A DNA stretch of 64,000 nt from Methanobacteriota archaeon. Its GTDB lineage: Archaea > Thermoplasmatota > Poseidoniia > Poseidoniales > Thalassarchaeaceae. Below are positions 16,036 to 49,172 of the stretch, one piece after another. Position numbers and translations under genes: made by a program. The notes beneath the pieces are model-generated. The model did no database searches and had not been told where the DNA came from. It saw only the letters and a list, made by a program, of their open reading frames with translations. The stretch is taken from NCBI GenBank assembly GCA_016845345.1, contig JAERSV010000080.1:8750-72749 (forward strand). Direction: 5' to 3'. The first letter of the stretch is position 1, and the number at the start of each line of letters is the position of its first letter.

Positions 16036-18489
16036 TCAGGCCCTATCATCAGAATCTGATGTTGAATCGGAAGTGCCGCTCGCTTCATCTCCTTCATCTT
16101 CACGCGGCTCATCTTCAACATCCTCAGGCTCAGACTCTTCTCCATCAGCCACAATGTAATCATCTTCCCAGCCCCAATAACTTGGGGCATCAATTCTTTC
16201 TGGAAGGCTAACAGAGTCTGAAAGCGCCATCGTACTGTAATTAGTTACAGTCACGCCTTCAGCAGAGAACGCATAGACATAATCACCCATGAAGATGGAG
16301 CGCCTAACATTTGGACTACCGTAGTAATAGGATTCTCTTAGCCCATTTTCTCCATTGTAGAAATCGGAGTGGTCTATTGTGCCATACTTGGTAAGTGTGT
16401 TATTCTCAGCATCAACCTTCACTAGAATCAATTGTGTGACATACTCGTAACCACTGAAAGAGTATTTTCGTCCATCAATTGTCACTTCATCATAGGTGTA
16501 TCGGTAGGTCGAGAGAGGTATTGCCAACAATTCAGCAGGCGCCCAGTAGGTGAATGCCTTATGCTCATAGGTCGCCTCACTGTACGACCATGACCAACTC
16601 CACCAATCCTCACTGTTGCGGTCAATAGGAGCAAGTTGCAAAGCCGATGCCAAGGTTGGGTCAGAGAAGTTCGAGACATCAAACAATGAAATCTGGGTGT
16701 TACCCCAATCCAATCCCAATCCATCTTCGCCACCAGCAATGCCGATTGTCAAGAGATGGTCTTCACTTAGTGGGTGAATGTAGGTTGACACGCCTGAAAC
16801 CTCTAACTCACCAATCACTTGTGGATTAGTTGGGTCTGAAAGGTCAATTGTCCAAAGAGGGTCAATATTTCTGAATGTGACAAGGTATCCCTTCTCACCA
16901 ATGAAACGGCAAGACCAGATGGTCTCTCCTGTAGCAATGCCACCAACATGGCCTATCTGTAGTAATTCATCACCACCGTTCTCATCTGGTGCAAGAACGT
17001 AGACGTCGTTAGTTGGGCCAGCCCAATCTTCGCCATCTAGCCACCAGCGGCCCCAAATGTCCTGAGTTGTAGCAACTCGGATGGTGCCGTTGTATTCTGA
17101 AAGTGAGAACTGGTCGTTGACAGTTCCAGTAACTCGACCTGAGCCGATGTAGGTCGTTATTCCACCATCTGAGATATCAAAAGCATGAATGTTTGTTGCC
17201 TCCACAAAATCATCATTTCGCCAGTACCACCACCAATCATTGGCTGGCTCTGCAAGAATTAGCATATCTTCGCTTGCATAGACTTCAACCCATGAGGATG
17301 AAACGTGGTCTAGTTCGTATTCAATCATGTCGCCAAACAATTCAATTGTCATTACAGTAGTAAATCCGCGTCCAACTGAATCTGCTGCCGCAGAAAATTC
17401 TTCGCAAGTTGCACTAACTGTTGATTGTTCAACAACTGTTCCATCAGCCATTCGCTCATGCATTCTTGGAGAGAAATCTGCTAATGTTAGGCCTGCAATA
17501 ACTTCTAGATTGTAGGCGATTGCCTCATCTACACTTGCATTCCAAATATCTTGGCGTTCTGGGTCGTTGTGGTCAATCTCCCAGTAATTATCAGGAAGAG
17601 TTGGGTAAGTGCGCAATCCTTGTAATTGCGCGTATGAATGCGTCACAGCACGAAGTGTGCCATCAACTAATCTTGCAGTTTGATAAGAACCGTCAAGGTA
17701 TAGTTCGCGGTCAATTTGTGGGTCTGAACGGTCAGTTATATTCATCACTGTGAACTTCACTTTGTTGCTGTATCGATAGTATGAGTAAATGCTGTCACCC
17801 TCAGCATTATCTGCCATCATAGCAAGGCGGATAGGATCATCAGAAGGTAGATTCCAATAGGAAACATAAGAGATGATCACGAGTTGATTTCCATTAACAA
17901 GCATCTGCATTGGAGAACCCTCCAATGCCGTACTAGATTCCAGAGTAACGTTGCCAAACTCAGGCACTCCCAAAATTACCAACTGACCGTTGTTAATCAT
18001 GTAGATATGATATCCATCGGTTTTGAGGAAGTCTGCTTCATCAACACCTTCTTCCTGATTATTTGTCTCTGAATATTCGCCTTCTCGGTCTCCAGACCCA
18101 GAAGTGCTTGGTGGCGATGAACTATCCATTGTTTGAGTACTATCTCCGTCACTTGCCATTTCAGCAGCTGCAGTATCGACCATTATGTCATCTTCCATAA
18201 AGCCACCACGGAATCCCCAAGAATTCCAATGCCAGTATGATGCCTGGTCAAGGCCAACCATCATTTCTTCAGCAAGAGAGTTTCGTAGATCTTCTTCAAG
18301 TTCTGCACACCCATCATATTGGTTCAAAACGGGAGAAGAACGTACCCGATTACCGAGGAGTAACTCGGGAGAAATCCAGTCAATATTCTCTTCATTTTCA
18401 TTATCTATGGGATTTTCTAATGTTCCCAAACAGCCAGCCAAAAGCATTGAAGCCAGCACAATCAAAACCATAACAGGTGTTCTTGCCAT
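16036..18489 (-). CDS. Large secreted protein (817 aa) with lipobox-like signal, Trp-rich beta-propeller-like body and acidic C-terminal tail
   Basis: The signal is MARTPVMVLIVLASMLLAGCLG. The C-terminus is EDEPREDEGDEASGTSDSTSDSDDRA. The 21-nt shared promoter motif lies 31 nt upstream. Confidence 0.55.
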   Translation of the reverse strand: MARTPVMVLIVLASMLLAGCLGTLENPIDNENEENIDWISPELLLGNRVRSSPVLNQYDGCAELEEDLRNSLAEEMMVGLDQASYWHWNSWGFRGGFMEDDIMVDTAAAEMASDGDSTQTMDSSSPPSTSGSGDREGEYSETNNQEEGVDEADFLKTDGYHIYMINNGQLVILGVPEFGNVTLESSTALEGSPMQMLVNGNQLVIISYVSYWNLPSDDPIRLAMMADNAEGDSIYSYYRYSNKVKFTVMNITDRSDPQIDRELYLDGSYQTARLVDGTLRAVTHSYAQLQGLRTYPTLPDNYWEIDHNDPERQDIWNASVDEAIAYNLEVIAGLTLADFSPRMHERMADGTVVEQSTVSATCEEFSAAADSVGRGFTTVMTIELFGDMIEYELDHVSSSWVEVYASEDMLILAEPANDWWWYWRNDDFVEATNIHAFDISDGGITTYIGSGRVTGTVNDQFSLSEYNGTIRVATTQDIWGRWWLDGEDWAGPTNDVYVLAPDENGGDELLQIGHVGGIATGETIWSCRFIGEKGYLVTFRNIDPLWTIDLSDPTNPQVIGELEVSGVSTYIHPLSEDHLLTIGIAGGEDGLGLDWGNTQISLFDVSNFSDPTLASALQLAPIDRNSEDWWSWSWSYSEATYEHKAFTYWAPAELLAIPLSTYRYTYDEVTIDGRKYSFSGYEYVTQLILVKVDAENNTLTKYGTIDHSDFYNGENGLRESYYYGSPNVRRSIFMGDYVYAFSAEGVTVTNYSTMALSDSVSLPERIDAPSYWGWEDDYIVADGEESEPEDVEDEPREDEGDEASGTSDSTSDSDDRA

Positions 18490-18520
18490 GATTACGCCAC
18501 GATAGTCCCTACATTAAGGG

Positions 18521-18541
18521 AGTTGGTTCAACGATTTTACC
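18521..18541 (-). promoter_or_regulatory. Promoter/operator motif GGTAAAATCGTTGAACCAACT (minus-strand sense). It combines a BRE/TATA-like GGTAAAAT with the palindrome GTTGAACCAAC.
   Basis: It lies 31 nt upstream of the ATG at 18489. A near-identical copy is at 19719..19739. Confidence 0.5.
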
Positions 18542-18795
18542 TTTAGGAACGAACAATCCTCTACAAAAACAATATTTACGGAGGATAATTTGACTTCGCT
18601 TCATCGATATCCGTTTTGAAAACATAGACTATTTTGTAAGTTGTTCAGGTTGTTTCTTATTACTGAATCTGTAAACATACTCAGTCTCTGTATTGACTGT
18701 TTAATTATGCAAACCACACACAAATTCTAGTGCCTAAGGTCGGCTTCTGTTAACCTTGAGTAACACTGTCATGACAAATTCGGGCTTTGGAAGAT

Positions 18796-19683
18796 TCAAG
18801 ACAAAGCAGATTCACGGACAACAGATAGTTGTCCATGACCAAGGTCTGAAAGTTTCCAGGTCGCCTTACGACCTTTTCCATCCTTATCGATTAACTCTCG
18901 CTCTTGCAGTTGTTTCAGGTGGTAAGCCATCAATTGTTTTGACGCTTCTAACTTTGTTCTGATTTCAACAGTTGAAATCCCCAAATCCCCTGCGCTGGAG
19001 AGTACCTCCAAAATTGCTCTTTGCATACCGGTAACGGGACTCTCAAGCTCATACAATTTCTTAGGGTCAATTCCCGTAATTGCATATCTTCTACGCCTAC
19101 CATCTTGCCAAGAAATCAACTCTCCAGCCTTTTCTAATTGGTGCAAATGGTACGCGGTTACGCCATTGGCTAGTGCGAGAGCATCGCGAAGTGCAGAGAA
19201 GTGTATCCCAGGGTGTGCCTCAACATAACCCTCAATTCGGCCGCGTGTTTGAACATCTTTCTCTTTACCATGAAGTTTCGCCAAAAGTGGACCGGCTAGA
19301 GCCAAGACAAGACCTGTCTTCACCCCCTCACTGACTATCACACCTACTCCAAGTGAGCCGACCAATCCAATGGTTACAAGGGCTAGAAGTAGCGCGGCAA
19401 TGATTGAGGTGAATCCTACAGTTGCTATTTCGCCTGCTCCATCCGCTGCAAGCGGTTCATCATTTCTAGAATCGGCTGATTCTGGTGTAGCACCACTGCT
19501 ATCATCCTCCTCGGCGCTATCATCTGTAGCGGCCATTTCTGCAACAAAATTTTCTTCTTCGTCGACTTGTTGTTCCTCTTGAGGCGTGAAATAATCAATC
19601 AGCAAAGCGCTGTTGTAAGCTGTTACAAGAAGGCCTAACACCGCTATTAGCGCTAACAGCCGGTATCCAACAACTCGGTTCAT
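18796..19683 (-). CDS. Membrane-tethered transcription regulator with two N-terminal-region TM helices, an acidic linker and tandem winged-HTH domains
   Basis: The TM helices are LLALIAVLGLLVTAY and IIAALLLALVTIGLVG. Two wHTH-like segments are GIHFSALRDALALANGVTAYHLHQLEKAGELISWQDGRRRRY and ISTVEIRTKLEASKQLMAYHLKQLQERELIDKDGKGRKATW. The start was chosen at the MNRVV Met (19683) because the TATA-like motif sits only 19 nt from the upstream Met at 19713. Confidence 0.5.
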   Translation of the reverse strand: MNRVVGYRLLALIAVLGLLVTAYNSALLIDYFTPQEEQQVDEEENFVAEMAATDDSAEEDDSSGATPESADSRNDEPLAADGAGEIATVGFTSIIAALLLALVTIGLVGSLGVGVIVSEGVKTGLVLALAGPLLAKLHGKEKDVQTRGRIEGYVEAHPGIHFSALRDALALANGVTAYHLHQLEKAGELISWQDGRRRRYAITGIDPKKLYELESPVTGMQRAILEVLSSAGDLGISTVEIRTKLEASKQLMAYHLKQLQERELIDKDGKGRKATWKLSDLGHGQLSVVRESALS

Positions 19684-19718
19684 GTTGACTCCTGAGAACA
19701 GGATTGCACCCATAACGA

Positions 19719-19879: not shown

Positions 19880-21802
19880 TCATTCAACTTCATTTGATTT
19901 ATTGCCATTAGCAATCGCTATTATTAGAACTAAAATTACTAAAATTAGTGGTACTGTATATGTGATAATATCAGCACTTCCGGAGGTATCTGATGGTTCG
20001 TTATTACCACTTGTAACCTCTTTATTTGCTAAACTGCATTCCATTTCATCGAGCACTTGCTCGGAAAAGAACACATTGCACTGGATTTTCTCAATTTCAG
20101 TGTTTCTAAGAATTATATCGGCTAAAGTTGTGCTATCTATCTGGTCTTGGATATCCTCCATATCTGAAAATTCCGAACCATAATACAGCCTGTCACCATC
20201 TCTCAATCTTGTGAATTGCTCTTTGATTATGACATGCATCGTCTCTCCGAGAGCTGAATTTTCGAGGTGTTCTTCTGCCAACATTCCAATCAATGCATCA
20301 ACACTGTCAACATCAGGATATGTGTTGTTCAAGGCTTCAATAGTTGTATTGTCGCTTGTGAAATCACTCCAATTCGTATATCGTGCTAATCCAAATGCTT
20401 CGCGCACGGTGTTGAAATCAGGTACCCCGTGGTCTCGTCCTCGTTGAGTATCAATGGCACACAAATCCATACCCCCTGCACCTGGAGGGCCAAACATTTG
20501 GTTTCGTAAATCGTCGACGAACATCAAATCATTTTCTGGTTGAACATTGAAGGCAAGACCGCGCAATATAGGCCCAATCCCACCGCCCTCGGTAATTGGT
20601 GTAACATCAAAGAATCCCTCCCTAAGTGCGAGATGACCCCCTGTTGCCGTCATTCGTGACTCATTCAGTCTTAACATCGAACTTCCAATTTGACTATGAC
20701 CCATGCGGAATGCAACTGTTGCAAACTCATTTGAAATGGCTGGGTTAATTGTCGAATCATATCCACTGTAGGAATCTAATTCAATTCCCAAAGATGGCAA
20801 GAATTCATTGTAGGTGATTGACTCAATCAATCCGATATTTATGTGCCGTGCATATTGGTAAATCTGCTCATCAGACCAGTCAGGATTCCTATCCAAGATT
20901 TCACCAGCCAAACGGTTGTGTTCCCTAACAAATAAAATATGCATAGAAAGTAATGCTACGTGCTCATTTGCTCTCGCATCTCCTGCCACGAATGAATTAG
21001 AGAAATTGAAGCCAGCAAATGACATGCCTGGTGTTGTAGGGTCTTCTGCATAATTTGCTTGGGGCAATAAATCACCTTCATCAAAATCACTAACTTTCAT
21101 CCTACCATCTTGGTATTCTCGCAACCAATTCGCTCGTCCTTCATCACTGCCATATACTACTGAACCATCAATCCAAGTTGAAATCGTGTTAGGATGTTCT
21201 CTCTGATTTAGTGGGTCTCCGTCCCCCGTGCCCTCAGCCACTAATGAACGGAAAAATCTCATTTGTAAACCGCCAGGGAATCCCATCCATTCATCGTTTT
21301 CTGAAATTGGAATATATGCTGTATCCGGTTGATCTTGATTTGGTGTCCTACCATCTTGAGTTGTCGTATGGTCAATATCATGGGTGATGAACTGTCCCCA
21401 CAGCCAGTTGTAGTCAGACAATCCTCGTGAATCAGGGTGTGACTGATCTTCTTGACAAAGGGAATTGCTAATTTCACGTGGGTTCGGAATATCCTCACGG
21501 TCCCAAAAAGTGAGGTTTTCACCATCAGTTGTAGGATATCTCTCTGCGAATCGAGAAAGTTCCGACCCGACTACCCCATATTCAGGGTGTTCGATATTTA
21601 CCCCAGAACCATCATATCCATACTGGGCCCCAGCATCGATGACAGATTCATCTGTTGAGGCATAGGTCGTAGCACCATCCTCCTTTTCAATACTTGAAGC
21701 CGACACTGTTGCCAATCCTAACAACATGAAAAGTGCAACTGTTAATGATGCAAATCTTTTGCGATTTGAGACTTCGTTATTTGATTCAAAATTTCTTGGC
21801 AT
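19880..21802 (-). CDS. Animal-haem-peroxidase (peroxidase-cyclooxygenase superfamily) homologue, secreted with a C-terminal TM anchor. The catalytic motifs are intact.
   Basis: It has the distal GQFITHDIDH, the Ca-binding loop WIDGSVVYGS, GDARANEH (catalytic Arg and Glu), SMHILFVREHNRLA, and QRGRDHGVPDFN (putative proximal His). The signal peptide is LTVALFMLLGLATVSASS and the C-terminal helix is VPLILVILVLIIAIA. Confidence 0.75.
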   Translation of the reverse strand: MPRNFESNNEVSNRKRFASLTVALFMLLGLATVSASSIEKEDGATTYASTDESVIDAGAQYGYDGSGVNIEHPEYGVVGSELSRFAERYPTTDGENLTFWDREDIPNPREISNSLCQEDQSHPDSRGLSDYNWLWGQFITHDIDHTTTQDGRTPNQDQPDTAYIPISENDEWMGFPGGLQMRFFRSLVAEGTGDGDPLNQREHPNTISTWIDGSVVYGSDEGRANWLREYQDGRMKVSDFDEGDLLPQANYAEDPTTPGMSFAGFNFSNSFVAGDARANEHVALLSMHILFVREHNRLAGEILDRNPDWSDEQIYQYARHINIGLIESITYNEFLPSLGIELDSYSGYDSTINPAISNEFATVAFRMGHSQIGSSMLRLNESRMTATGGHLALREGFFDVTPITEGGGIGPILRGLAFNVQPENDLMFVDDLRNQMFGPPGAGGMDLCAIDTQRGRDHGVPDFNTVREAFGLARYTNWSDFTSDNTTIEALNNTYPDVDSVDALIGMLAEEHLENSALGETMHVIIKEQFTRLRDGDRLYYGSEFSDMEDIQDQIDSTTLADIILRNTEIEKIQCNVFFSEQVLDEMECSLANKEVTSGNNEPSDTSGSADIITYTVPLILVILVLIIAIANGNKSNEVE

Positions 21803-21804
21803 TT

Positions 21805-23715
21805 TTATTCCTCCTCGATTTCTTTTTCCTCTAGGTTCTCTATTTCTCTTCCTGAAAATACTACTACCGCTATCAACATTAATGCTATCATTATCCCTAC
21901 ATAGGTGCTCGTTTTAGTTGAACTTACCCCATCATTTCCTCCTGAAATGAGCGGAGCATCTGAATTTGCCAGATGGCACTGAAAACTGCTGGCATCGCTC
22001 TCAGCAAAGAATACATCGCATTGAATCGATTCAATTCCTGTATTTCGGAGGATAATATCAGACAACCGCAGAGAATTGAACTCACTGGTTAACGAATTTA
22101 ACTCAGCATCATTCTCATACCAGAATCTATCTGCATCACGCAGTCTTTGGAACTGGTCCAATACCAACATCTGTTGGGTTTCCCCATAGATTGAATATTC
22201 GAGTCTATCTTCTGCCATTACACCGATATATGCATCGATGCTATCAACATCTAGATACGCTGATGCTAATTTTTGTTGTGAATCAACATCTGAACTGATA
22301 TCACTCCAATTCGTGACCCTCTCAAGCCCAAGACCTTCTCTTAATGAATTGTAATCTGTGAGTCCACGGTCACGGCCTCGTTGGATGTCCATTGCACAAT
22401 CATCCATCCAGCCACCCCACATTGCCCCACTCATCAAGTTGCGAAGACTGGGGATAACTGCCAAATCCATTTCTCTTTGAGTATCGTATGCAGCACCTCG
22501 AATCGTGGTATCAATTCCACCAACCTCAATTAGTGAAGATGAGGTCCAAAAGCCATCCCTCAAATCCAAATGTCCGACTTCAGTTTCGTTGAGTCCTTCA
22601 TCAAATTGCAGCCAACCATCAGCCATCTGACTACCTGTAGCAAATCCTGCTAACAAGATGTATTCATTACTTAATTGTGGATTAATAGTTGAATTATAAC
22701 CGGTATAATCATCCAAATTAATTCCAATGGATGGGAGATATTCATTGTATGTAATCGCTTGAATTTCAGCCTGAACTAATTTCTTCGTCCGCTGAAATAC
22801 CTGTTCATCATTCCAATCAGAATTGCGCTCGCTCACACCATCTGCAATTCGGTTGTGTTCCCTGATGAACAAGACTTGCAGTGAAGTGAGACCAATGTGC
22901 TCTAGGTTCCTTGAATCACCGGTAAAAAATTGGAGATTGGGGTCATCCCCCGACGCACTCTCTACATATTCAGTTATGCGAGCAGGTACCATGTCCCAAC
23001 CTCGAACGTCGGTTACTTTTAGACGCCCCCCCTCACCACTGCGAAGATAATCTTGAAATTCTACACTAAAGGAATATATTGAGCCCCCATCAATCCAACT
23101 ACTCACCTCATTCGGATACTCCCGAGGATTTTCTTCACCATCTCCTGTACCAGAAATGAATTCAGTTCGTAAATATTTGATTCGTGAATCTTCTACACCT
23201 CCTGGATTCATAATTCCATCATCAATTGGAATCAGAATGTGTGCCTCTTCCAGTCCACCTTCATGAGAAGAGTCTTGATGAGTGGTGAGTTGCATATCGT
23301 TGTTGATAAATTCAGACCAAAGTACATTCATGTTTGAAAGACCAAGTGGACTTGGTGTAACACTTGTTTCTACACAAACTTGATTCGAAATAATTCGTGG
23401 ATTTTCATATTCGGGGTGCGCCATTTCAGAGATATTGTCATCAAAAGATGGTGAAGTTAATCGATTGATTTGGCTGTCAACCGCACCCCAATCGTTGTTA
23501 GCAATATTATTGCCACTACCATCATTATTTCTCATTTCTTGCGGTGCCATTTCATCATCAGATGCGAACAAACTCGACTCTTCTTTAGCAACTGGTGTTG
23601 CGGCTGTTGGAAGCGATAACGAGACCGATAAGAGCAAAATTGCCATTATTTGTGAGAAGAAGCGAGTTGCAGTGAAGCCTCGAGAACGCTTTTGCAACCT
23701 ATAGGGGGTAGACAT
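21805..23715 (-). CDS. Paralogous peroxidase-family protein with degenerate active site (putative pseudo-peroxidase), secreted with a C-terminal TM anchor
   Basis: It aligns to the upstream paralogue (GDSRNLEH, LFIREHNRIA), but the distal His is replaced (SEFINNDMQ), the Ca loop is degenerate (WIDGGSIYSFS) and RDHG has become RDRG. It lies 2 nt downstream of the first paralogue. Confidence 0.65.
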   Translation of the reverse strand: MSTPYRLQKRSRGFTATRFFSQIMAILLLSVSLSLPTAATPVAKEESSLFASDDEMAPQEMRNNDGSGNNIANNDWGAVDSQINRLTSPSFDDNISEMAHPEYENPRIISNQVCVETSVTPSPLGLSNMNVLWSEFINNDMQLTTHQDSSHEGGLEEAHILIPIDDGIMNPGGVEDSRIKYLRTEFISGTGDGEENPREYPNEVSSWIDGGSIYSFSVEFQDYLRSGEGGRLKVTDVRGWDMVPARITEYVESASGDDPNLQFFTGDSRNLEHIGLTSLQVLFIREHNRIADGVSERNSDWNDEQVFQRTKKLVQAEIQAITYNEYLPSIGINLDDYTGYNSTINPQLSNEYILLAGFATGSQMADGWLQFDEGLNETEVGHLDLRDGFWTSSSLIEVGGIDTTIRGAAYDTQREMDLAVIPSLRNLMSGAMWGGWMDDCAMDIQRGRDRGLTDYNSLREGLGLERVTNWSDISSDVDSQQKLASAYLDVDSIDAYIGVMAEDRLEYSIYGETQQMLVLDQFQRLRDADRFWYENDAELNSLTSEFNSLRLSDIILRNTGIESIQCDVFFAESDASSFQCHLANSDAPLISGGNDGVSSTKTSTYVGIMIALMLIAVVVFSGREIENLEEKEIEEE

Positions 23716-23872
23716 CTCTCAACCACTTTTTACGAGTAGTTCCTCGGGTTAGAACCTTTTTCTATGGAATGAACTTAAATTTTTTGAACTGTACGATTTA
23801 ATTGTGTGGGGATGTTTCATAGGTAAAATCTCTGTGGTTAATGTTGCCGAAGTACGCGCGAGGGGTTCCATA

Positions 23873-26143
23873 ATGGCAATAAATCAAATTCAACGCCCCA
23901 AAAAAATTGCAATAATTTTGGCAATTCTAACGATTGCAAGCCTTCTTTCAGCACTTCCCTCTCCAGCACTTGCACATTCACAGGGTGTACCAACTGAAAC
24001 AATGGTTACCTTCACCGATGTTTCCGAAGCAAGTGGCATAAGTATCATTGACACTGGTCCAAAAACAAATTGGGTTAGTTATGGACCGGGAATTTCGGTT
24101 GATGATTGTGACCAGGATGGAGACATGGATGTCATGGTTACTGCAAGATACGACCATCTATCTTACGAAAATTCCGAATTTGAATCCGGTTCAATTCAAT
24201 TTATGTTGAACAATGGAGATGGAACATTCACAGACTGGACCATTGAATCTGGCATGAATTTAGAAAATACAACTGTAATCGGGTCTTCTTGGGCAGATTA
24301 CGATAATGATGGTGACAAAGATGTTTATCTCAGCGCTTTTGGCGAATCAGATGTTGATAATTTAGAATCGGGTGAGAAAAATATCCTCTTCAAAAATATT
24401 GGAAATTGTCAGTTTACTGATGTCACTGACCTGACTGGTGTGGGCGAAGGTGCTCAAGCCACCGCCGTTGTAGTAAATGGAAACGTCACGGAAGTTGTAA
24501 TGCAAAATGTAGGGTCAAATTATGCAACATCTGGCGGACTTGCTCCTGCAATTTATTTCCGTGATGCCTACGGTAATGGCGCAGTCGCTGAGGCTATTGT
24601 CACAGTTGACGGTGCTATATCATCGGTTTCCATTACCAATGGAGGCGAGGGTTACGACTCTGAAAATCCACCTGAAGTGATATTTGTCAGCGGTGTGGCT
24701 AACTACGGCCATAGCACAACTGCAATTTGGTCTGACTACGACCATGATGGTGATGTTGACCTCTATTCAATGAATCTCGGCATTGTCGATGAAGAATTAT
24801 ACTGGGCGCGTACAGAAACCAACTTTCTCTATCGAAATGACGGCGATATTGACGGCGACGGTGAGATAGAATTCAGTGATGTAACAAATTTCGCTGGTGT
24901 CAGCGGCCAAGCCGAAGTCTCAGATTCGCCGAATCAATTCTTCCTTTCAGGACTCTACAGAATGGACCAAGCCAGTCCTTCAAACCCCTCAACCATGGCA
25001 CAAATCGCTTCCGCAGATTATCTAGGAACTGGGCTTTCCTTTGCAGGATTATGGTTTGATTATGATAATGATGGCTGGGAAGATCTCTACGTTGCCTCAG
25101 ATTTTGGTATGTCACCAATCTATCACAATAATCGCGACGGTACTTTCACTGTGGTTACAAAAGAGTTGGAAATGGACCTGCCCGGTACTGGCATGGGAGC
25201 ACATGCAGGGGATTGGGATGGAGATGGAGACCTTGACCTGTGTCACTCAAACTTCGGGCCAAACTACCTTTGGGAAAACGATGGTGGGAATTCATTCACT
25301 GAGAGAAGCCGTGACTTGGGATTCCGTGATGCAGGCACCGCTGGCTCATTTGTTGCGGTGAACTGGGCTTGCCAATTCTTTGACTACGACCTTGATGGGG
25401 ATTTGGACATCTTCTTTGGAGTTGGAAGAATCAACCGCTTTACAGCCTACAATAATAATACATTATACAGAAATGATGGTGATATTGATGGTGATGGTTT
25501 TGTCAATTTTGTTGATATTAGTGGCGAAATCGGCTTAAGAACTGGAATTAATGGAAACAAAACCATGGGAGTTTCAATCTTTGATTACGATAATGATGGT
25601 GACTTAGATATCATGCTTGGTCACTCAGACAGAGCACCTCAATTATTCTCAAACAATGCTGTTGAGGAAACCAGCCGCCATTGGCTAAAAGTTCAACTTG
25701 AAGGACGACAGACAGATGTCGCTACATCCGAAAGTGGTGGACAGCGCGATTATTCAAACAGTTATGGTACTGGATGCTTAGTTACCGTGACCCTCAAAGA
25801 TGGTCACCAATTAAGTCAACACGTGTATGCTGGAAGCGGATTCTTAGGAAGTAACGAACCAACTGTTCACTTTGGTTTGGATACTGATGATTCGGTAAAA
25901 TCAGTTGAGGTTGTTTGGTCGACGGGGATTACCCAAATTGAAAGAAATGTTGAAGCAGACCAAACTCTTGTGATGGAGGAACCAACGAGTTTGTTCTTCA
26001 TGCTTTTTGGTATTGGATTACATCAAAATATTAATTCAGCCCTCTATCTATTATTCACTATCATCTTGATTGGTGCTGTATTCAAAATTTATAACACCAA
26101 AAATGATTCAACAACTGAAGATAAAAACTCAGAAGAAGAGTAA
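23873..26143 (+). CDS. FG-GAP repeat / CRTAC1-ASPIC(UnbV)-like cell-surface protein with signal peptide and C-terminal TM
   Basis: It has repeated Ca-binding FG-GAP-type motifs (YDNDGDKDVYLS, DYDHDGDVDLYS, DYDNDGWEDLYVASDFG, DWDGDGDLDLCHSNFGPNYLWEN, DYDLDGDLDIFFG, DYDNDGDLDIMLG) and a C-terminal ASPIC-like segment (GSGFLGSNEPTVHFGL). The ORF is open from 23804; ATG 23873 was chosen because GGTAAAATC sits 42 nt upstream. Confidence 0.6.
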   Translation: MAINQIQRPKKIAIILAILTIASLLSALPSPALAHSQGVPTETMVTFTDVSEASGISIIDTGPKTNWVSYGPGISVDDCDQDGDMDVMVTARYDHLSYENSEFESGSIQFMLNNGDGTFTDWTIESGMNLENTTVIGSSWADYDNDGDKDVYLSAFGESDVDNLESGEKNILFKNIGNCQFTDVTDLTGVGEGAQATAVVVNGNVTEVVMQNVGSNYATSGGLAPAIYFRDAYGNGAVAEAIVTVDGAISSVSITNGGEGYDSENPPEVIFVSGVANYGHSTTAIWSDYDHDGDVDLYSMNLGIVDEELYWARTETNFLYRNDGDIDGDGEIEFSDVTNFAGVSGQAEVSDSPNQFFLSGLYRMDQASPSNPSTMAQIASADYLGTGLSFAGLWFDYDNDGWEDLYVASDFGMSPIYHNNRDGTFTVVTKELEMDLPGTGMGAHAGDWDGDGDLDLCHSNFGPNYLWENDGGNSFTERSRDLGFRDAGTAGSFVAVNWACQFFDYDLDGDLDIFFGVGRINRFTAYNNNTLYRNDGDIDGDGFVNFVDISGEIGLRTGINGNKTMGVSIFDYDNDGDLDIMLGHSDRAPQLFSNNAVEETSRHWLKVQLEGRQTDVATSESGGQRDYSNSYGTGCLVTVTLKDGHQLSQHVYAGSGFLGSNEPTVHFGLDTDDSVKSVEVVWSTGITQIERNVEADQTLVMEEPTSLFFMLFGIGLHQNINSALYLLFTIILIGAVFKIYNTKNDSTTEDKNSEEE

Positions 26144-26155
26144 TAATAGGGCGGG

Positions 26156-35024: not shown

Positions 35025-35122
35025 GGGGCCGATGGAAACATTGTTCCTGTAAAAGGGTAGTCAATAGATGTGGCTTACATTGGACTAGCAAAACGAATAA
35101 GTTAGCGGCCAGTACGACAATC

Positions 35123-41317: not shown

Positions 41318-41444
41318 TTTCTCACCTCCGTTGCCATTTCAGGCATAACGGCCACTTAGGCCATCGTTTTCAAGCGATTCCTTGACAGTTCATCCAATAG
41401 AGCCATTCAAGAGAGATGGGGCAGTCGGCGGTTTGGTGACAGAG

Positions 41445-42179
41445 ATGTCTGATACACTTCCGGTGCATGTGACTGTGGTTATACCAACCCGAAATGAAGA
41501 GGCTGCAATCGTTGATACGATTAGGTCTGTACCCTCTGATGGATGGTGTGAAAAACTTGATTTCTTAATTATTGATGGTAATTCCTCTGACAGAACAAGA
41601 GAATTGGCTAAGCAAGAAGGCGCACAAGTATATCTTGAGCCACGCAAGGGTTACGGTAGAGCATATCGAACAGGGTTTGCTATGGCGCCAGGGGAAATTA
41701 TCGTAACAATGGACGCTGACTGTACATATCCTGGTGAAGAAGTACCGGGATTAGTACGAAAACTGGTTGAAGAAGATTTGGAATTCATCACCTGTGACCG
41801 CCTAAAAAGAGCTGAGGAAGGCAGCATGTCAGGTATGCACGGTTTTGGTAATTGGGCTTTATCATTCACTGCTCGCATGTTGTTCTGGTATGGGATTCAT
41901 GATTCCCAATCCGGTATGTGGGTGTTTTACAAGCGCATCATGGATAACCCGAAAATGAGGCCGACCAACGATGGAATGCCACTTTCAGAAGAGATGAAAA
42001 TCAATGCGCGTCGCTGTTTTGGCAAGAAAAAGGCAATTGAGATTTCAGTGCCATATCGTCCAAGAGTTGGCGATGCTGAAATCAATACTTGGGCTGATGG
42101 TAGAAAGAATCTAATCTTCCTTTATCTCAAGCGATTTGGACTAAATCGAACCCGCTCTCCTTGGGGACCTGAAGAATAA
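41445..42179 (+). CDS. Glycosyltransferase family 2 (dolichyl-phosphate sugar transferase-like)
   Basis: It has VVIPTRNEE, IIDGNSSDRT and MDADCTYP (DxD) motifs. The ORF is open from 41382; the MSDTLPVHV Met was chosen. It is divergent from the GT4 gene. Confidence 0.7.
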   Translation: MSDTLPVHVTVVIPTRNEEAAIVDTIRSVPSDGWCEKLDFLIIDGNSSDRTRELAKQEGAQVYLEPRKGYGRAYRTGFAMAPGEIIVTMDADCTYPGEEVPGLVRKLVEEDLEFITCDRLKRAEEGSMSGMHGFGNWALSFTARMLFWYGIHDSQSGMWVFYKRIMDNPKMRPTNDGMPLSEEMKINARRCFGKKKAIEISVPYRPRVGDAEINTWADGRKNLIFLYLKRFGLNRTRSPWGPEE

Positions 42180-42277: not shown

Positions 42278-43933
42278 TTGGCTGTAAGTAAATCCGATGT
42301 TGCGGTTCTTTTTGAAGAGCCGATAAGGATTGGTTCTGGAGGCGGATTTTGGGGTGATAGACCACTTGCACCTGTGGACCTCCTCAAAAGCGATGATTTG
42401 GATTATATGATTATTGATTACCTCGCTGAATTGACTCTCTCCATCATGACCAAACAGAAGCGTCGAGACCCCAGTTCTGGCTGGGCAACCGACCTAGAGT
42501 TATGGCTGGCAGCAGGCGGAATTGATGCTCTACGAAAAAAATCGGTGAAACTTGTAACTAACGCAGGTGGTGCAAATCCAGAATCCTGTGCAAGGATGGT
42601 TCTTGAACAAGCGTCAAAAATAGGTTGGCATGAATGTAAGGTTGCGGTGATATCAGGTGACGATATTCTTCCCCGACTTGATTATCTATTGGCTAATGGG
42701 GAAGACCTAACTCATTTTGAGACTGGCGAAAAATTATCTGATAATGGGGTCGAGATGATGTCTGCAAACGCCTATCTCGGCGCCGGCCCAATCGCATCAG
42801 CACTGGAAATCGGTGCTGATATCATTATCACCGGGCGGGTTGCTGATGCGAGTCTTTTAGTCGGTTGTATGTTACATTCAGCAGGATGGGCCTACAACGC
42901 CTTTCAACTCGGCTTGACTCGAGAATCACCTGTCGTAGATTGGGCACCACAGCATATCACAAATCCTCTTGATGTTCTAGCACAATGGACCATTGCCGGA
43001 CATTTGATAGAATGCGGCGCTCAGGTTTCTGGTGGAAATTATTCTAACTGGGGTGAAGTACCAAACCTTGCTACCCTAACTCTACCGATTGCTGAAATCT
43101 ATCTAAATAGTGATGTCAAAATAACTCGGGGAAAAGCCGGAGGTGGAATGGTGAATAGAAAGATTGTTGCTGAACAACTAATCTACGAAATCGGAGACCC
43201 AGAAGAATATATCACACCTGATGTAATAGTTGATATGAGAAACATCAGCATTGAAGATGAATCTGAGGATGTGGTGATTGTAAAAGGCGCTATTGGCAAA
43301 CCTGAACCTAAATCTCTGAAAGTCAGTGCCGCTGTAGAAGGAGGTTGGTTTGCATCATCCTCACTACTCGTCAGTGGGCCACATGCCATCGCAAGAGCAA
43401 ACGCTTGTGATCTCGCTCTGAGAGCCCGACTCTCTGCCTTAGAAGAATTAGAGATTCACACCGAATTCATTGGATCTGGTGTGACATTACCCAAAAACAT
43501 CCGGCAAGAATTATTCCCCCTACTGAACCCACCAGAAATCATGCTGCGATGGGCAGTAACAAGTCCTAATCGCAGAGATATCACTGATTTTACCCAAGAA
43601 GTTGCTCCCCTCGTACTGACTGGACCTGCTGGAGTAGGTGGGTATGGGGCTAGGCCTAAACCACGCCGCCAACTACAATTTTGGCCGACTCTAATCTCAA
43701 GAAAATCTGTCGAGTCATTGGTGAAAATTGAACTTCTCACCCATCTTCACATTTCAGCAGAAAGTGAACGATTCCATTTTATTCGCAGGCGAACAAGAGG
43801 TTTCATCTCCAGACTTCAAGATGAACTTGATGAGCGAGAGTGGACCCGTCCATTGGTGAAGAAACTGGGATGGGAACGAAATGACTCTATTACTGACCTG
43901 ACAATTCAAAAAGAAAAAGAGGTGGAAATTTGA
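42278..43933 (+). CDS. AtuA-like DUF1446 family protein (tentative)
   Basis: The N-terminal IRIGSGGGFWGD pattern and ~550-aa length fit the family. It is followed, with a 4-nt overlap, by a small partner ORF, as is typical for DUF1446/DUF4387 pairs. Confidence 0.4.
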   Translation: MAVSKSDVAVLFEEPIRIGSGGGFWGDRPLAPVDLLKSDDLDYMIIDYLAELTLSIMTKQKRRDPSSGWATDLELWLAAGGIDALRKKSVKLVTNAGGANPESCARMVLEQASKIGWHECKVAVISGDDILPRLDYLLANGEDLTHFETGEKLSDNGVEMMSANAYLGAGPIASALEIGADIIITGRVADASLLVGCMLHSAGWAYNAFQLGLTRESPVVDWAPQHITNPLDVLAQWTIAGHLIECGAQVSGGNYSNWGEVPNLATLTLPIAEIYLNSDVKITRGKAGGGMVNRKIVAEQLIYEIGDPEEYITPDVIVDMRNISIEDESEDVVIVKGAIGKPEPKSLKVSAAVEGGWFASSSLLVSGPHAIARANACDLALRARLSALEELEIHTEFIGSGVTLPKNIRQELFPLLNPPEIMLRWAVTSPNRRDITDFTQEVAPLVLTGPAGVGGYGARPKPRRQLQFWPTLISRKSVESLVKIELLTHLHISAESERFHFIRRRTRGFISRLQDELDEREWTRPLVKKLGWERNDSITDLTIQKEKEVEI

Positions 43934-44331: not shown

Positions 44332-44351
44332 TTGGATTTAACAAAATAATC

Positions 44352-47300
44352 TCAATCAAGTTCAACCATCGATGGTATATCATCATCTGATTTTTGTTCC
44401 CCGTCTACTTCTTCTGTGAAGTCAAGAGGTTTTTCATCACCTACTGGGCCTATGGTATCAGAATCTTCATCAAATGGAGAATCTCCATCTTCATCACCAA
44501 AACCACCAACACCCCATGATTCAATCATTTGCAAATCAGCAGCAAGGCGGCGTTTACGGGAAAATGTGTAGATTACCCCACCACCAACAGCTAATCCAAG
44601 AAGACCAAGAATTATGGCAACTGTACTATCCATTATGACATCAAAGAATGACGATTGCTGTGAAGCACCTTCGACTCTGATAGTCGATGAAAGGCGATTC
44701 GAAAGATGTGGCTCTTCTTGTGGCCCATCGCGGCAGATTACCTCAATGTTCACCCAACCATCACGACCTGGTGTAACTCTCACTTGGCCAGTCCATGTGC
44801 TGTCACTAGCAACATCATCAGGGTTTGCACCATCATCGGAAAGTGAAAATTCGGTCTCGATTCCACCCTGAGATGCCCAACCCACACACTCCCAAGTTGT
44901 CATATCAGCATCAAGAACGAAAGCACGCGTAGTAATGATTGATTCAACACCAGCAGTCAACGTGCCCGGTTCTACCAGCAAATCATCCAAAACCGGCCAC
45001 GAATCTTCAACAGTAATATTGACAAACGCCCAAGTTGAAGAGCCTCGGCTATCTTTCACCTGAAGTGAAATCAACTGTGTTCCTGGAGCCAAAGTCTGAT
45101 TACCCATCTCCGTCTCATTCAACAATACAGCAGATGCACCTTGACCAAGGTACCAACGATAGAGAATTATATCTTCATCTGCATCCCATGATTCGTTAGC
45201 ATTTAGAAAAATGTTTGCACCGGGAGAAATTGTTTCCCCCTCTTGGGGCGAGGAAATAATAGCCATAGGTGGAGACGCTAGAACCTTCAAAGAACGCGTC
45301 TCATTTCTACTCATTCCAGTCTCGTCTGTAACAGTGTACGTAAGAGTGTGATCGCCTGAAGGAACATACCTTGAATACCAGAAATTTGGACTTACAGCAT
45401 CGAGTATGGGTTCAGAAAGCAAGTTAGAAGTTACGCTAAAAGTAAAGTTATCGCCATCCGGGTCCCATGATTGTTGAGGGTCAAAAAGTACCACTTCATT
45501 GCTTACAACCTCGATTCCATCATCAGGTGAACTCAGTACAAGAATCGGGGCACTCGTAGACACTTCGATTGTAATAGAATCGGTCACAGGGGTATTTACT
45601 CCATCCGAAACTGTGAGGGTGACTACATTCGTGCCACTAGGTAATCGAGCCTCTACCTGCCAATCACCACCAAATGGTTCACTCAGTAAACTGCTAGTCC
45701 ATTCAGGAGTTACCGTATCGGGCATAGACGGAGAGCCGGGGTTACACAACCAACCAGTTGACATTTCCGGGAATGCTTCTGCACAGGGTGCATCCCAATC
45801 GCCAGAACCATAGGCTGAGAAAAGGACAAGGTCGGCTGACTCAATACTATCGCTGGGGGATGGTGATTCAATGTGAGAAAGAGGAGGGGAATTTAGCACC
45901 TCGACCTCAACTTCAAATGGTGTTGACCACTGATTGATATGGTATGAATCATCATCTGAAAGTCGCAGACTGATGGTGTGTGTTCCTTGGCTGAGATACC
46001 CGGTCCAAATCAGAGGGGTGGTCATTGATGTATTCAAGTCACCATCAATATCAGAATTCCACCAAGCATCAATCTCATCACCTTCGGGGTCAAAGGATGC
46101 TGAGCCATCAAACGTAACGATTGATTGCGAGAAATTTGAGTCACGATTGACCGTGAAAGAGGGATGCGGATATTCATTCTGAACCTCCACTGAGATATTG
46201 TAGTACACAATTGGGTTGAGCCCGTCGGAGAAGGCCATCGTGTAGGTGAACTCTCTGCTTGGTGCGAATTCAAATGTCCTATTCCACTCAAGCGGATAAT
46301 TGGTTGTGACTCCAATACCAGCCTGCTCATATTCGGTCCATTCGCCTGTTTGAATCAAATCACCTTCTGCATCAGTTGTATCACTAGCGTTGACATGGAG
46401 ATTCTCTGTGTAGTTGAGGCGCAGTACCCCATCCCAGTCAAGAGGAGGTGTGGTCTGTACAATGACCGAAGGCGGCAGATTTACGAACTCGATTGTCCGC
46501 GTCTCACTTGCACAATTTCCTTGGTCATCACAGACTTGTAAAGTAATCTGGTGCTCACCATCTACGAGAGTACAACCCCCTTGACCTTGCCCCGCATTTG
46601 GACCGTTGACTAACATATCCCCCGGCACAACTCCGCCCATAAATGGATTGCAAAATACACTAGTATCACCATCAATATCACTAGTCCATTGGAATGTGAT
46701 TGGGTCGTTGTCCAAATCCCATGAGTTGCTGGCGTTGAACCAGATTTCCGCGCCTGAACTAGTCACTGTCCCATTCAATGGCTCATCCCAGAGAATAAGT
46801 GGTGGTTGATTGACAAGAGTGATTGTGCACAAGTGCATCATCAAATCCTGATTGAGTGCATCTGGTCCAGTTGTTCCTTGTGTGTTATCATACCAACATT
46901 CAGTAGAAAAGTCCGTCACTGCAGACGAACCTGTTAGTGTATGCCTTTGTCCTACAAAGGGACCTAGTAGTTGGTTCCCGCCGTAAGGAACTGTAATAGA
47001 GAAATCACTTTCAAATTGCGAAAATGACGCATTTACCATCGCATATGGTAAACCATGGCTAAATTGATTAACAACCCACAAATCAACAAACCACATTTCA
47101 TCAAAGGTCACACTTGGCGCCAATGAAGGAATCGTCACTTGGCTGGAAATTGACCGAACATAACTCTGGCCTGTAATCGAAAATGGTACGCTACCCTGAA
47201 CGTAATCTGTTAGATTTAGGTCACTGCCTGAAATCGCTACACTACCTGTACACCCTGAAACATCTAAGCCCCATGTGTTCAGTTTTGGTAGATTTGATAC

Positions 47301-49172
47301 CGATAAACAATTATTTCCAGTCAACGTGCTGTTACCCAACTTTGAGTCAAGAGTTCTGCCAGTCCACTGAATTCCTGAATGGTTCCCATAAAGATTGATT
47401 CCCTCGAGTCTTGCATCGGTGTCATCAAGCAAAATGACCGGGGCTGTTGCCGATAGATTTGCATAGATTTCAGCGCCATCAATATCGACCCAGCCGTCCC
47501 AGTTCATGTTTGAATCATCAATGATTATCGCTGACTGACCTTGAACTACATTAGGGTCATGAACTTCCAAATCCACAAATTGAATATCGACTGAATCCTG
47601 AACCCTTAGGGCTGCCCAATTATCATCAATTGATTTACATTGAACGCATTGTACATTAGTTCCTGTAAACATACCATATTGATTACTTTCAACAAAAACC
47701 ATCCCTGCACCATTCTGAGCACTAGCGGCGGAATAGCCATTAGAACGGGATTCAAAGTTTTGCAAGGCTAACCTATTTGAGTTACTTACGCGTAACCCTG
47801 AAAAGCCATTATTTTGTGATAAAATGTTTGAAATAGACGGGAATGCATCTTGAACAAGTAATCCTTCGTTTCCGTTATTTTCAGTGACCCAGTCTGACCC
47901 ACTAACATCACCTTTAGAAACAAATATTCCAACTCCGGGAGACTCTGAAACGGTTAGATTTTGGATTGATGGCCCACCGTTACTACTACTACGCATGAAG
48001 AACCCTGCACGCTCGTTTGTACCCCCTATGAGCGCACCAGAACGCGTTATTGAGGTGTTTATGAAACTCGTAGATGGGTCGGTCATGTACATTTTTACAC
48101 CGTTGATTGTATTATCATGGATATTCAAATTCTCAAACCAACCACCACTAGTGTTGAGGAAAACTGTTCCATATGCCAAACCAGGAGATGATGAGTTTGG
48201 TCCACCTGTTCCAAATACTTCCAAATTGTGGAATCGCCCCATCATGTAGGTTGAATAATTTGAACGGTCTGTTTTTGTCATCATAACTGCAGAATATTGT
48301 GAGTCACCAATTACAACATTTCTAACAACGGGGCGAGTGATTAGGTTATCAGTCGCGTGAAGAACATAAATTCCATTATCACACTTTGAGATGATGACGT
48401 CTTCAATTAGCGGTAGAGAATCTTCAACGAAGATTGCTGCTGAAATATTCATTGTTGCCCCACCTACATTGGTGATATTTACACCACGAATGACACCACC
48501 ACTATTCCCCCAAAATGAAATTGCGCGTGTGATTTGACTTGTGAAGTTGACATCTTCAACAAATGGTGCTGAACCTGCGCCGATAGAAAGCCCGATTCCA
48601 TAGCGCCAATTGGTCATGCTTCCATGTACATCTTGGCCTCCTCCTGCAAATGTGGTTCGTCGAATAACTGGGTTCGACCAATCAAACAAATCGATTGCAA
48701 CTAAGTCAACATTGTTGAATAAAACATCCTCAATAACTGGATCACTATTGAAAATCGTAATGCCAAATTGAGCATCATTGAAGGTTACATTTCTCAGGGA
48801 TGAGCCCCGATTACGGCTGGATGAATTGAATTGAAATCCATCGTGCCAAGTGAATCCTGATTGAACTTGGAGAGTAATTGGGTCAGCAGCAGTACCATCG
48901 GCTACAACTTTTCCATCAACATAAATCCGAACGCCTGGACCCATTTGTAGAGTTGTCCCGGCATAAATTCGTAATTCATCACCTGCGGCAACTGTGAAGT
49001 CATTGTTGATATCCATCGTGCCTGACCAAATTATCAACGCCTTTGAGGAAGTAGACAGAGATTCATCATCGGAAACTAATTGTGAATTTTCATCAACTGG
49101 TAAAACAGATACAAGTGAGGTAAGTGTCATCATCATCGAGAAGATGATAGCAGTTCTCACACCTCTAGCCAT
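44352..49172 (-). CDS. Giant (1606 aa) surface protein with signal peptide, N-terminal right-handed parallel beta-helix repeats, multiple Ig/PKD-like domains, a C-terminal TM and an acidic cytoplasmic tail
   Basis: It has repetitive short-beta-strand segments rich in N/G/S/T/V (NVTFNDAQFGITIFNSDPVIEDVLFNNVDLVAIDLFDWSNPVIRRTTFAG and similar). Its downstream repeats are of the form (D/N)xD...W..D..G. The TM helix is VAIILGLLGLAVGGGVIYTF and the tail is DEDGDSPFDEDSD.... Confidence 0.65.
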   Translation of the reverse strand: MARGVRTAIIFSMMMTLTSLVSVLPVDENSQLVSDDESLSTSSKALIIWSGTMDINNDFTVAAGDELRIYAGTTLQMGPGVRIYVDGKVVADGTAADPITLQVQSGFTWHDGFQFNSSSRNRGSSLRNVTFNDAQFGITIFNSDPVIEDVLFNNVDLVAIDLFDWSNPVIRRTTFAGGGQDVHGSMTNWRYGIGLSIGAGSAPFVEDVNFTSQITRAISFWGNSGGVIRGVNITNVGGATMNISAAIFVEDSLPLIEDVIISKCDNGIYVLHATDNLITRPVVRNVVIGDSQYSAVMMTKTDRSNYSTYMMGRFHNLEVFGTGGPNSSSPGLAYGTVFLNTSGGWFENLNIHDNTINGVKMYMTDPSTSFINTSITRSGALIGGTNERAGFFMRSSSNGGPSIQNLTVSESPGVGIFVSKGDVSGSDWVTENNGNEGLLVQDAFPSISNILSQNNGFSGLRVSNSNRLALQNFESRSNGYSAASAQNGAGMVFVESNQYGMFTGTNVQCVQCKSIDDNWAALRVQDSVDIQFVDLEVHDPNVVQGQSAIIIDDSNMNWDGWVDIDGAEIYANLSATAPVILLDDTDARLEGINLYGNHSGIQWTGRTLDSKLGNSTLTGNNCLSVSNLPKLNTWGLDVSGCTGSVAISGSDLNLTDYVQGSVPFSITGQSYVRSISSQVTIPSLAPSVTFDEMWFVDLWVVNQFSHGLPYAMVNASFSQFESDFSITVPYGGNQLLGPFVGQRHTLTGSSAVTDFSTECWYDNTQGTTGPDALNQDLMMHLCTITLVNQPPLILWDEPLNGTVTSSGAEIWFNASNSWDLDNDPITFQWTSDIDGDTSVFCNPFMGGVVPGDMLVNGPNAGQGQGGCTLVDGEHQITLQVCDDQGNCASETRTIEFVNLPPSVIVQTTPPLDWDGVLRLNYTENLHVNASDTTDAEGDLIQTGEWTEYEQAGIGVTTNYPLEWNRTFEFAPSREFTYTMAFSDGLNPIVYYNISVEVQNEYPHPSFTVNRDSNFSQSIVTFDGSASFDPEGDEIDAWWNSDIDGDLNTSMTTPLIWTGYLSQGTHTISLRLSDDDSYHINQWSTPFEVEVEVLNSPPLSHIESPSPSDSIESADLVLFSAYGSGDWDAPCAEAFPEMSTGWLCNPGSPSMPDTVTPEWTSSLLSEPFGGDWQVEARLPSGTNVVTLTVSDGVNTPVTDSITIEVSTSAPILVLSSPDDGIEVVSNEVVLFDPQQSWDPDGDNFTFSVTSNLLSEPILDAVSPNFWYSRYVPSGDHTLTYTVTDETGMSRNETRSLKVLASPPMAIISSPQEGETISPGANIFLNANESWDADEDIILYRWYLGQGASAVLLNETEMGNQTLAPGTQLISLQVKDSRGSSTWAFVNITVEDSWPVLDDLLVEPGTLTAGVESIITTRAFVLDADMTTWECVGWASQGGIETEFSLSDDGANPDDVASDSTWTGQVRVTPGRDGWVNIEVICRDGPQEEPHLSNRLSSTIRVEGASQQSSFFDVIMDSTVAIILGLLGLAVGGGVIYTFSRKRRLAADLQMIESWGVGGFGDEDGDSPFDEDSDTIGPVGDEKPLDFTEEVDGEQKSDDDIPSMVELD

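Follow-up and report, generated by a model that had tools for sequence, protein, structure and literature searches.

A membrane-anchored haem peroxidase linked, and repeatedly fused, to a CRTAC1-like propeller protein in Marine Group II archaea

Which genes of a region rich in surface proteins belong to one functional system is the question raised by a 64,000-nucleotide chromosome segment from Marine Group II (MGII; Poseidoniales, Thalassarchaeaceae-type), here called the window. Its positions 16036-49172 hold two adjacent haem peroxidase genes among genes for very large secreted proteins, and the first-pass annotation had proposed that these 33 kb encode a single extracellular matrix-like layer in which the peroxidases cross-link the proteins around them. 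Comparison across the order Poseidoniales reduces this to a three-gene module with ordinary adhesin-like neighbours. The functional unit would consist of the peroxidase POX640 (640 amino acids (aa); 19880-21802, reverse strand), its paralog POX636 (636 aa; 21805-23715, reverse strand, 2 bp upstream of POX640) and the CRTAC1-like protein ASPIC779 (779 aa; 23804-26143, forward strand), the gene of which is divergent to the peroxidase pair, and all three would act at the cell surface. Judged from sequence and gene order, the conserved unit is the peroxidase together with the CRTAC1-like gene throughout the order, with POX636 added in the lineage of the window.

The linkage was investigated in 80 loci taken from GTDB species representatives, each surrounding a peroxidase homolog and 60 of them from Poseidoniales, by mapping the window proteins and by calling and clustering open reading frames (ORFs). 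Seven loci ending too near the peroxidase and one without a called peroxidase ORF were left out as uninformative. Of the 52 informative Poseidoniales loci, 51 had the peroxidase fused to an ASPIC-type gene or at most 3.3 kb from one, and no gene intervened in 36 of the 38 pairs of separate genes. The two genes were convergent in 24 loci, divergent as in the window in 11 and in tandem, ASPIC first, in 3, while 13 loci from 13 species carried both in one ORF. ASPIC identities across the linked loci go down to approximately 31%. Elsewhere in the order the pair is found next to genes for a xylose-isomerase-like TIM barrel, an RNase PH exosome subunit, a cytidylyltransferase, riboflavin synthase and DHBP synthase. 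No ASPIC779 homolog was found near the bacterial peroxidase loci (L060-L081), and the bacterial relatives of the peroxidase bear type IX secretion system (T9SS) tails, dockerin, cohesin or RTX repeats instead. The co-location of peroxidase and surface proteins noticed in the first-pass annotation is thus retained for the CRTAC1-like gene and is restricted to the lineage of the window for the giant proteins.

The single-ORF forms, of about 980-1306 aa, have the peroxidase at the N-terminus and the FG-GAP/ASPIC part at the C-terminus, followed by a transmembrane helix. They occur in MGIIa, as in L055 (Poseidoniaceae), and also in MGIIb, as in L056 and L057, and one metagenomic fusion, P0114, was verified in frame on its own contig. 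A metagenome search with a fusion as query gave at least 43 further clusters at 90% identity that combine An_peroxidase, FG-GAP_3 and UnbV_ASPIC, down to 41% identity. A rough neighbour-joining tree places the fused forms in three or more clades, interleaved with unfused ones. An AlphaFold2 model of a 1199-aa fusion showed both halves folded (pLDDT 80.4, pTM 0.56); the N-terminal half matched the cyanobacterial peroxidase structure 8s6c and the Dictyostelium enzyme DdPoxA with template-modelling scores of 0.89-0.90, and the C-terminal half matched murine CRTAC1 (9etn) with E=1.5e-26 and a score of 0.75. Linkage across the order and repeated gene fusion together make a strong genomic case for the peroxidase and the ASPIC protein working together. 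It supports the view, on genomic grounds, that the peroxidase is functionally tied to one particular FG-GAP surface protein, the CRTAC1/ASPIC-like one. No description of such a linkage or fusion, nor of a haem-less paralog, was found in the literature searched.

Two variations on the pairing were seen. In loci L045, L047 and L048 two genes of the ASPIC type are present; the nearer lies just upstream of the peroxidase, with a gap of 4-13 bp, and the other 3-4 kb further upstream, past an RNase PH and a TIM-barrel gene. On L089, a contig of 6.7 kb, positions 1949-4597 encode an 882-aa fusion (P0254) of An_peroxidase with FG-GAP/FG-GAP_3 and without the ASPIC domain; its neighbours, a CMAS-type methyltransferase and a DUF1295 gene, are unlike those in Poseidoniales loci, and peroxidase-propeller fusions may accordingly exist outside the order.

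POX640 matches the Pfam family An_peroxidase (PF03098) over its full length (E=1.5e-141, 473 bits, cut-off 25) and has a signal peptide and a transmembrane helix at residues 612-630. Its best matches in the PDB, 8s6c (E=2e-107) and DdPoxA (6erc), place it closest to the cyanobacterial and Dictyostelium 'family 6' enzymes within the peroxidase-cyclooxygenase superfamily; these LspPOX-type and DdPoxA structures are its best matches in sequence and in fold alike. The active site was compared in an alignment of 8s6c with 59 POX640-type and 13 POX636-type sequences. Gln137, His141, Arg277, Glu280 and His369 are invariant in all 59 POX640-type sequences, so that each retains the distal Gln-His-Arg triad and the proximal His of active enzymes, and the RGRDHG motif and the calcium-site motif TxWxDxS..YG are always present. 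The triad, the proximal His, the Glu ester residue and the calcium-site motif are shared with LspPOX and DdPoxA. Two positions that are canonical in the closest cyanobacterial homolog differ in the archaea. The second haem-ester residue, an Asp, is replaced by Thr (53/59) or Ser (6/59), and the Asn that hydrogen-bonds the proximal His is Asp (Asp451) in all 59. POX640 is in addition archaeal and a type I membrane protein whereas LspPOX and DdPoxA are soluble and secreted, and its partner or fusion module is FG-GAP/ASPIC and not dockerin, RTX or T9SS. POX640 is accordingly predicted to be an active, outward-facing haem peroxidase anchored by its C-terminal transmembrane helix. A known enzyme family is here found in a new conserved architecture, two-component or fused, with a distinct active-site variant.

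The ester residues bear on the likely substrates. DdPoxA carries Ile at the ester-Asp site, forms one Glu ester bond and has a reduction potential that is more negative; its oxidation rates are >1e8 M-1 s-1 with iodide and thiocyanate and only ~15 M-1 s-1 with bromide, and chloride is not oxidised at all, while the bromide oxidisers for which potentials are given, LspPOX and peroxidasin, carry two ester bonds (PMC5787809). Since POX640 retains only the Glu ester, like DdPoxA, iodide and thiocyanate chemistry rather than bromide oxidation is predicted, and the same is expected of the active-site variant as a whole, a single Glu ester with Asp for the proximal Asn. The MGII gene has been named 'PXDN' by KEGG-style annotation (PMC10783094), and POX640 and peroxidasin are both extracellular haem peroxidases of one superfamily. 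PF03098 was however the sole Pfam family found in POX640 and POX636, no leucine-rich repeat (LRR), immunoglobulin (Ig/Ig-C2) or von Willebrand factor C (vWC) family being reported as the peroxidasin group, family 2, would have, and by its best PDB matches POX640 is nearer to family 6 than to family 2. With the ester Asp missing, formation of hypobromous acid (HOBr) is predicted to be poor. The absence of LRR, Ig and vWC families and of the ester Asp means that POX640 is not a peroxidasin, and no collagen IV-like substrate of the peroxidasin system is found among the annotated genes of the window.

Export, origin and expression of the peroxidase genes were also considered. A conserved twin-arginine motif is absent from approximately 70 N-termini and the signal peptides are of the Sec type, by which Tat export, which would account for haem loading before export, was rejected. 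The genes were treated as cellular rather than viral, as the peroxidase alignment had no relative in IMG/VR when scanned against it; 'magrovirus' peroxidase genes expressed in a diel rhythm have been described in a preprint. Among expression data, only katG is listed in the supplementary tables of a metatranscriptome paper on MGII. The nearest relatives outside the archaea, at 45-46% identity (L060-L064, L068, L077), are from the marine filamentous cyanobacteria Okeania, Dapis and Microcoleaceae, some with RTX repeats, a hint of gene exchange between MGII and cyanobacteria. A 305-aa protein (18796-19713, reverse strand) is encoded immediately downstream of POX640, both in the window and in L002-L004, L007 and L011; its transmembrane helices, at 14-32 and 109-127, precede HTH_HVO_0163 and MarR-type winged-helix domains. 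It is a neighbour within this lineage only, looks from its domains like a membrane-bound one-component regulator, and could possibly regulate the module.

POX636 also matches PF03098 over its full length (E=2.6e-115, 386 bits, cut-off 25) and has the same topology as POX640, and its active site is altered. The distal His is Asn in 12 of 12 POX636-type sequences, the proximal His is Gly, Ser, Thr or Glu in 13 of 13, and RGRDHG has become RGRDRG in 13 of 13. With both haem histidines lost, POX636 cannot ligate haem in the usual way. Each of the 12 species that have POX636, all from the lineage of the window, carries it as an intact ORF, and its dN/dS against four relatives was 0.12-0.14, compared to 0.07-0.115 for POX640 and 0.085-0.093 for ASPIC779. 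A decaying pseudogene was rejected on these values and the intact ORFs, and POX636 is a maintained pseudoenzyme, a duplicated copy under purifying selection. A parallel is known from the peroxidase-homology domain of DUOX, which has lost the proximal His (PMC4420034) and likewise retains the peroxidase fold. DUOX1 entries were the third and fourth PDB matches of POX636, above the mammalian peroxidases. Unlike DUOX, POX636 has no NADPH-oxidase domain or EF-hand region, has lost the distal His as well and is a separate gene adjoining its intact paralog. It adds a prokaryotic case of a peroxidase pseudoenzyme.

ASPIC779 carries FG-GAP_3 in four stretches (E=5.6e-33, 113.8 bits) and UnbV_ASPIC (E=5.7e-20, 71.4 bits), both above cut-off, has a signal peptide, 11 DxDxDG motifs and a transmembrane helix at 745-763, and resembles the CRTAC1 structure 9etn in sequence (E=8.7e-14). 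Translation probably begins at Met24, at position 23873. In CRTAC1 and ASPIC779 alike the FG-GAP propeller repeats are followed by the UnbV_ASPIC domain. Animal CRTAC1 has a C-terminal EGF-like calcium-binding domain and is a secreted soluble protein. In ASPIC779 no Pfam EGF family was reported and the protein is anchored by its C-terminal helix; the link or fusion to a peroxidase is a further difference, as none was found described for CRTAC1 in the literature. Nor was a stated function found there for any prokaryotic ASPIC/CRTAC1-family protein, and the linkage provides a testable hypothesis for both families.

ASPIC779 also contains, at residues ~224-290, an insert of about 70 aa without counterpart in more distant orthologs, where tblastn and blastp matches skip it or start after it. 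The insert contains two similar units of about 35 aa, each ending in GxGY, and looks specific to the lineage of the window.

Could the peroxidase and the propeller be neighbours by descent only, the adjacency being inherited gene order and the proteins independent or the peroxidase inactive? The undefined interface in the fusion model and the unexplained loading of haem after Sec export agree with this. The two genes have however stayed adjacent in four arrangements and while their neighbourhood changed, three or more clades contain in-frame fusions, purifying selection is strong on each of the three genes and the catalytic residues are invariant, which together leave the absence of a functional link very improbable and last among the explanations considered.

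The comparison establishes, from sequence and gene order, the extracellular topology of the proteins, the order-wide linkage with repeated fusion and the existence of one intact and one dead paralog. On these a mechanism can be proposed in which POX640 would be exported by Sec and face outward from its C-terminal anchor, next to its obligate partner ASPIC779, anchored in the same manner and predicted to bind Ca2+ with its FG-GAP propeller beside the ASPIC domain. Peroxidase and propeller would form a surface complex with the propeller as a non-catalytic docking or positioning subunit, and in the lineage of the window POX636 would join as a second subunit without catalytic role, much like the peroxidase-homology domain of DUOX. 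POX640 would consume hydrogen peroxide (H2O2) reaching the cell surface in sunlit seawater with donors that are readily oxidised, for instance iodide, thiocyanate or small organics, the net effect being local H2O2 removal. A surface peroxidase that removes H2O2 and is held by a propeller docking subunit is the explanation ranked first here, and is put forward tentatively, with a probability that is about even or somewhat lower. It fits the reported distribution of 'PXDN', named as an antioxidant gene, mainly in MGIIb while katG and gpx are mainly in MGIIa (PMC10783094), although the fused peroxidase forms found in MGIIa among the loci examined temper that distribution. The gene has so far been only one item in lists of antioxidant genes (PMC10783094).

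A second explanation is that the propeller binds some target, for instance the surface of an alga or particle, a polymer or a competing cell, and that the peroxidase makes HOI, HOSCN or radicals there to kill, loosen or degrade the target. Tight coupling or fusion to a binding-type propeller would suit the delivery of a short-lived oxidant, and DdPoxA, which has a like single-ester active site, is antibacterial (PMC5787809). The bacterial relatives are displayed or secreted via T9SS, dockerin or RTX modules, and two papers portray MGII as degraders of high-molecular-weight matter that are associated with particles and phytoplankton (PMC6336850; PMC10783094). A ligand is however not known for any ASPIC/CRTAC1-family propeller, and an oxidant produced at the cell's own membrane would harm the producer as well. 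Neither a linked H2O2-producing oxidase nor a relevant accessory gene was found in the peroxidase neighbourhoods or in the rest of the window, and the lack of such an oxidase speaks against targeted attack. This explanation is ranked second and is considered rather unlikely.

Several observations weigh against the proposed H2O2-removing complex. Nothing in these data separates H2O2 removal from a targeted oxidative role. The proximal Asp variant may alter or even abolish the chemistry of POX640, and with Sec-type signal peptides lacking the twin-arginine motif the loading of haem outside the cell is without explanation. The linker in the fusion model is of low confidence or disordered, and with the pTM at 0.56 the geometry between peroxidase and propeller is undefined. 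An ASPIC gene was undetected in 8 of the 60 Poseidoniales loci, of which only L044 is long enough to judge, and this locus has no ASPIC gene despite approximately 10 kb on each side of the peroxidase.

In its strongest form the hypothesis states that MGII display a dedicated two-subunit, often fused, surface peroxidase that oxidises iodide or thiocyanate, serving as an H2O2 sink and a driver of iodine redox cycling in the surface ocean, and in this form it is distinctly unlikely. If it were true, MGII, which rank with the most abundant archaea in sunlit ocean waters, would act on seawater H2O2 as a biological sink not recognised before and would drive surface-ocean iodine redox cycling. The CRTAC1/ASPIC family would then have a concrete functional context for the first time, that of a docking subunit for a peroxidase.

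The cross-linking of the neighbouring giants by the peroxidase, of the dityrosine or sulfilimine type, into a matrix or adhesion layer encoded by one 33-kb system is ranked third and judged improbable. In its favour all players are extracellular and membrane-anchored, the genes from the FG-GAP giant to the peroxidases are collinear in the lineage of the window, peroxidases of this superfamily do cross-link animal matrices (PMC10912723, PMC6611989) and one-electron dityrosine chemistry is compatible with the sequence. The proteins are however not Tyr-rich as had been assumed, with Tyr at 2.1-3.7% in the anchored ones and at 5.4% in the 817-aa Beta_propel protein only. One of the two 'peroxidases', POX636, lacks the haem histidines and cannot bind haem, and POX640 lacks the second ester bond, with the ester Asp absent in 59/59 and poor formation of HOBr, the oxidant of peroxidasin, predicted. 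The proposed recipe of a peroxidase beside Tyr-rich proteins thus did not hold. Gene order argues in the same direction. The giants are unlinked to the peroxidase in most Poseidoniales, where the pair lies amid riboflavin and exosome genes, and housekeeping and variable metabolic genes break up the block.

Synteny of the 33 kb, which the first-pass annotation had suggested as a check, was found in a narrow lineage only. The long block of FG-GAP giant, zinc-ribbon protein, M29-like protein, ASPIC, POX636, POX640, (HTH) and Beta_propel occurs only in L002-L014 and L069, loci in which peroxidase identity is at least 59%. A second block surrounds orthologs of a 447-aa protein, which has 22 homolog clusters only, and runs beta-helix giant, (AtuA), GT2, GT4, 786-aa protein, 447-aa protein, and further on thiamin pyrophosphokinase (TPK) and FG-GAP giant. 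Its order is kept down to 39% identity (L083-L088), with unrelated and varying inserts such as Cys/Met pyridoxal-phosphate enzymes, a methyltransferase, an AI-2E transporter and Lnb_N. Since the peroxidase pair lies among other genes in the rest of the order, the 33-kb collinearity is lineage-level gene order and not evidence of one system. The giants travel with the peroxidase only in the lineage of the window (L002-L014, L069, L083-L088), and the best explanation, drawn from these comparisons, is that the FG-GAP, DxDxDG and beta-helix giants are ordinary MGII adhesin-like surface proteins that lie near the module by lineage-specific gene order only.

The largest giant, a type I membrane protein of 2132 aa (28626-35024, reverse strand), matches Pfam FG-GAP (PF01839) in four stretches with 53.5 bits (cut-off 22.1), as a family match only. 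Its FG-GAP part spans residues ~340-730, 19 of its 22 DxDxDG units lie at 1160-1800, the transmembrane helix at 1875-1893 and a tail of 239 aa at 1894-2132. The tail begins with a poly-acidic run (DWDDDDDDMYDEFEEDDDDD), followed by a low-complexity stretch rich in Gly, Pro, Arg and Ser and by a Lys-rich end. The anchored 786-aa protein (37601-39961, reverse strand) is 17% Asp and has 15 DxDxDG units. In these tandem loops with flanking Cys residues two units alternate, QWxDxDGDG[FY]GDN and DRxGCxDxDGDG[WY]SDP. The loops had been called dozens of thrombospondin type 3 (TSP3) repeats, and they are indeed abundant, with 22, 15 and 11 in the 2132-aa protein, the 786-aa protein and ASPIC779. Against a cut-off of 25 bits, Pfam TSP_3 (PF02412) however scored only 16.0 on the whole 2132-aa protein and 19.1 on its repeat region, and it gave no match to the 786-aa protein even at E-values up to 5. 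Residues 1550-1724 of the 2132-aa protein alone resemble the TSP3 repeats of MtsC (E=2.3e-12), a partial match; DxDxDGxxD loops with flanking Cys are common to both, and the alternating pairs are a difference. A further adhesin-like giant, of 1606 aa (44352-49172, reverse strand), carries Beta_helix, PKD and Big_9 domains, a transmembrane helix at 1516-1534 and a 72-aa tail.

Eight proteins of 447-2132 aa within 16036-49172 (817, 640, 636, 779, 2132, 447, 786 and 1606 aa) have an N-terminal signal or lipobox-like sequence, which bears out the count of at least eight large secreted proteins up to 2132 aa, and the FG-GAP, CRTAC1/ASPIC, beta-helix and haem-peroxidase domain calls were confirmed by Pfam well above family thresholds. 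A C-terminal transmembrane segment, expected on each, was present in seven of the eight, the exception being the Beta_propel protein. Substantial cytoplasmic tails were likewise found, of ~239 aa (2132-aa protein), 72 aa (1606-aa protein) and 68 aa (447-aa protein). Six cytoplasmic genes interrupt the region, and similar proteins lie outside it. Three more anchored surface-type proteins, at 1888-3882 (forward, 664 aa), 13482-15071 (reverse, 529 aa) and 54336-57374 (reverse, 1012 aa), have a hydrophobic N-terminus, a transmembrane helix near the C-terminus and no Pfam family.

The remaining genes of the region are as follows from left to right. The Beta_propel protein (817 aa; 16036-18489, reverse strand; PF09826), with its lipobox-like N-terminus, is a lineage-level neighbour outside the module. 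Between its gene and the HTH regulator or the peroxidase, L003, L004, L007, L010 and L012-L014 carry a gene for a PKD-domain protein of about 580-620 aa, and at this place the window has only a gap of 306 bp (18489-18796). Beyond ASPIC779 follow two cytoplasmic proteins conserved in the lineage of the window only, an M29/NicX-like protein (356 aa; 26156-27226, forward strand) and a 454-aa protein with a weak C-terminal zinc-ribbon signal (27235-28599, reverse strand), the latter co-conserved with the neighbouring 2132-aa giant. The TPK gene (34925-35749, forward strand) is listed with 274 aa, against 204-212 aa in relatives (L083, L085, L087), and shares 100 bp with the beginning of the 2132-aa gene; its true start is probably further downstream. 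The anchored 447-aa protein (36274-37617, reverse strand) has a gene that overlaps that of the 786-aa protein, and for these two and the 454-aa protein no family was found in Pfam or NCBIfam. Two cytoplasmic glycosyltransferases, GT4 (423 aa; 40046-41317, reverse strand) and GT2 (265 aa; 41382-42179, forward strand), may glycosylate surface proteins, and AtuA (551 aa; 42278-43933, forward strand), also cytoplasmic, precedes the beta-helix giant. Outside 16036-49172 the window holds ordinary genes, among them those for a Hel308-type helicase, RadA, UvrC, a TYW2-type methyltransferase and an S15 peptidase. The window as a whole has a single tRNA-Met and a G+C content of approximately 44%.

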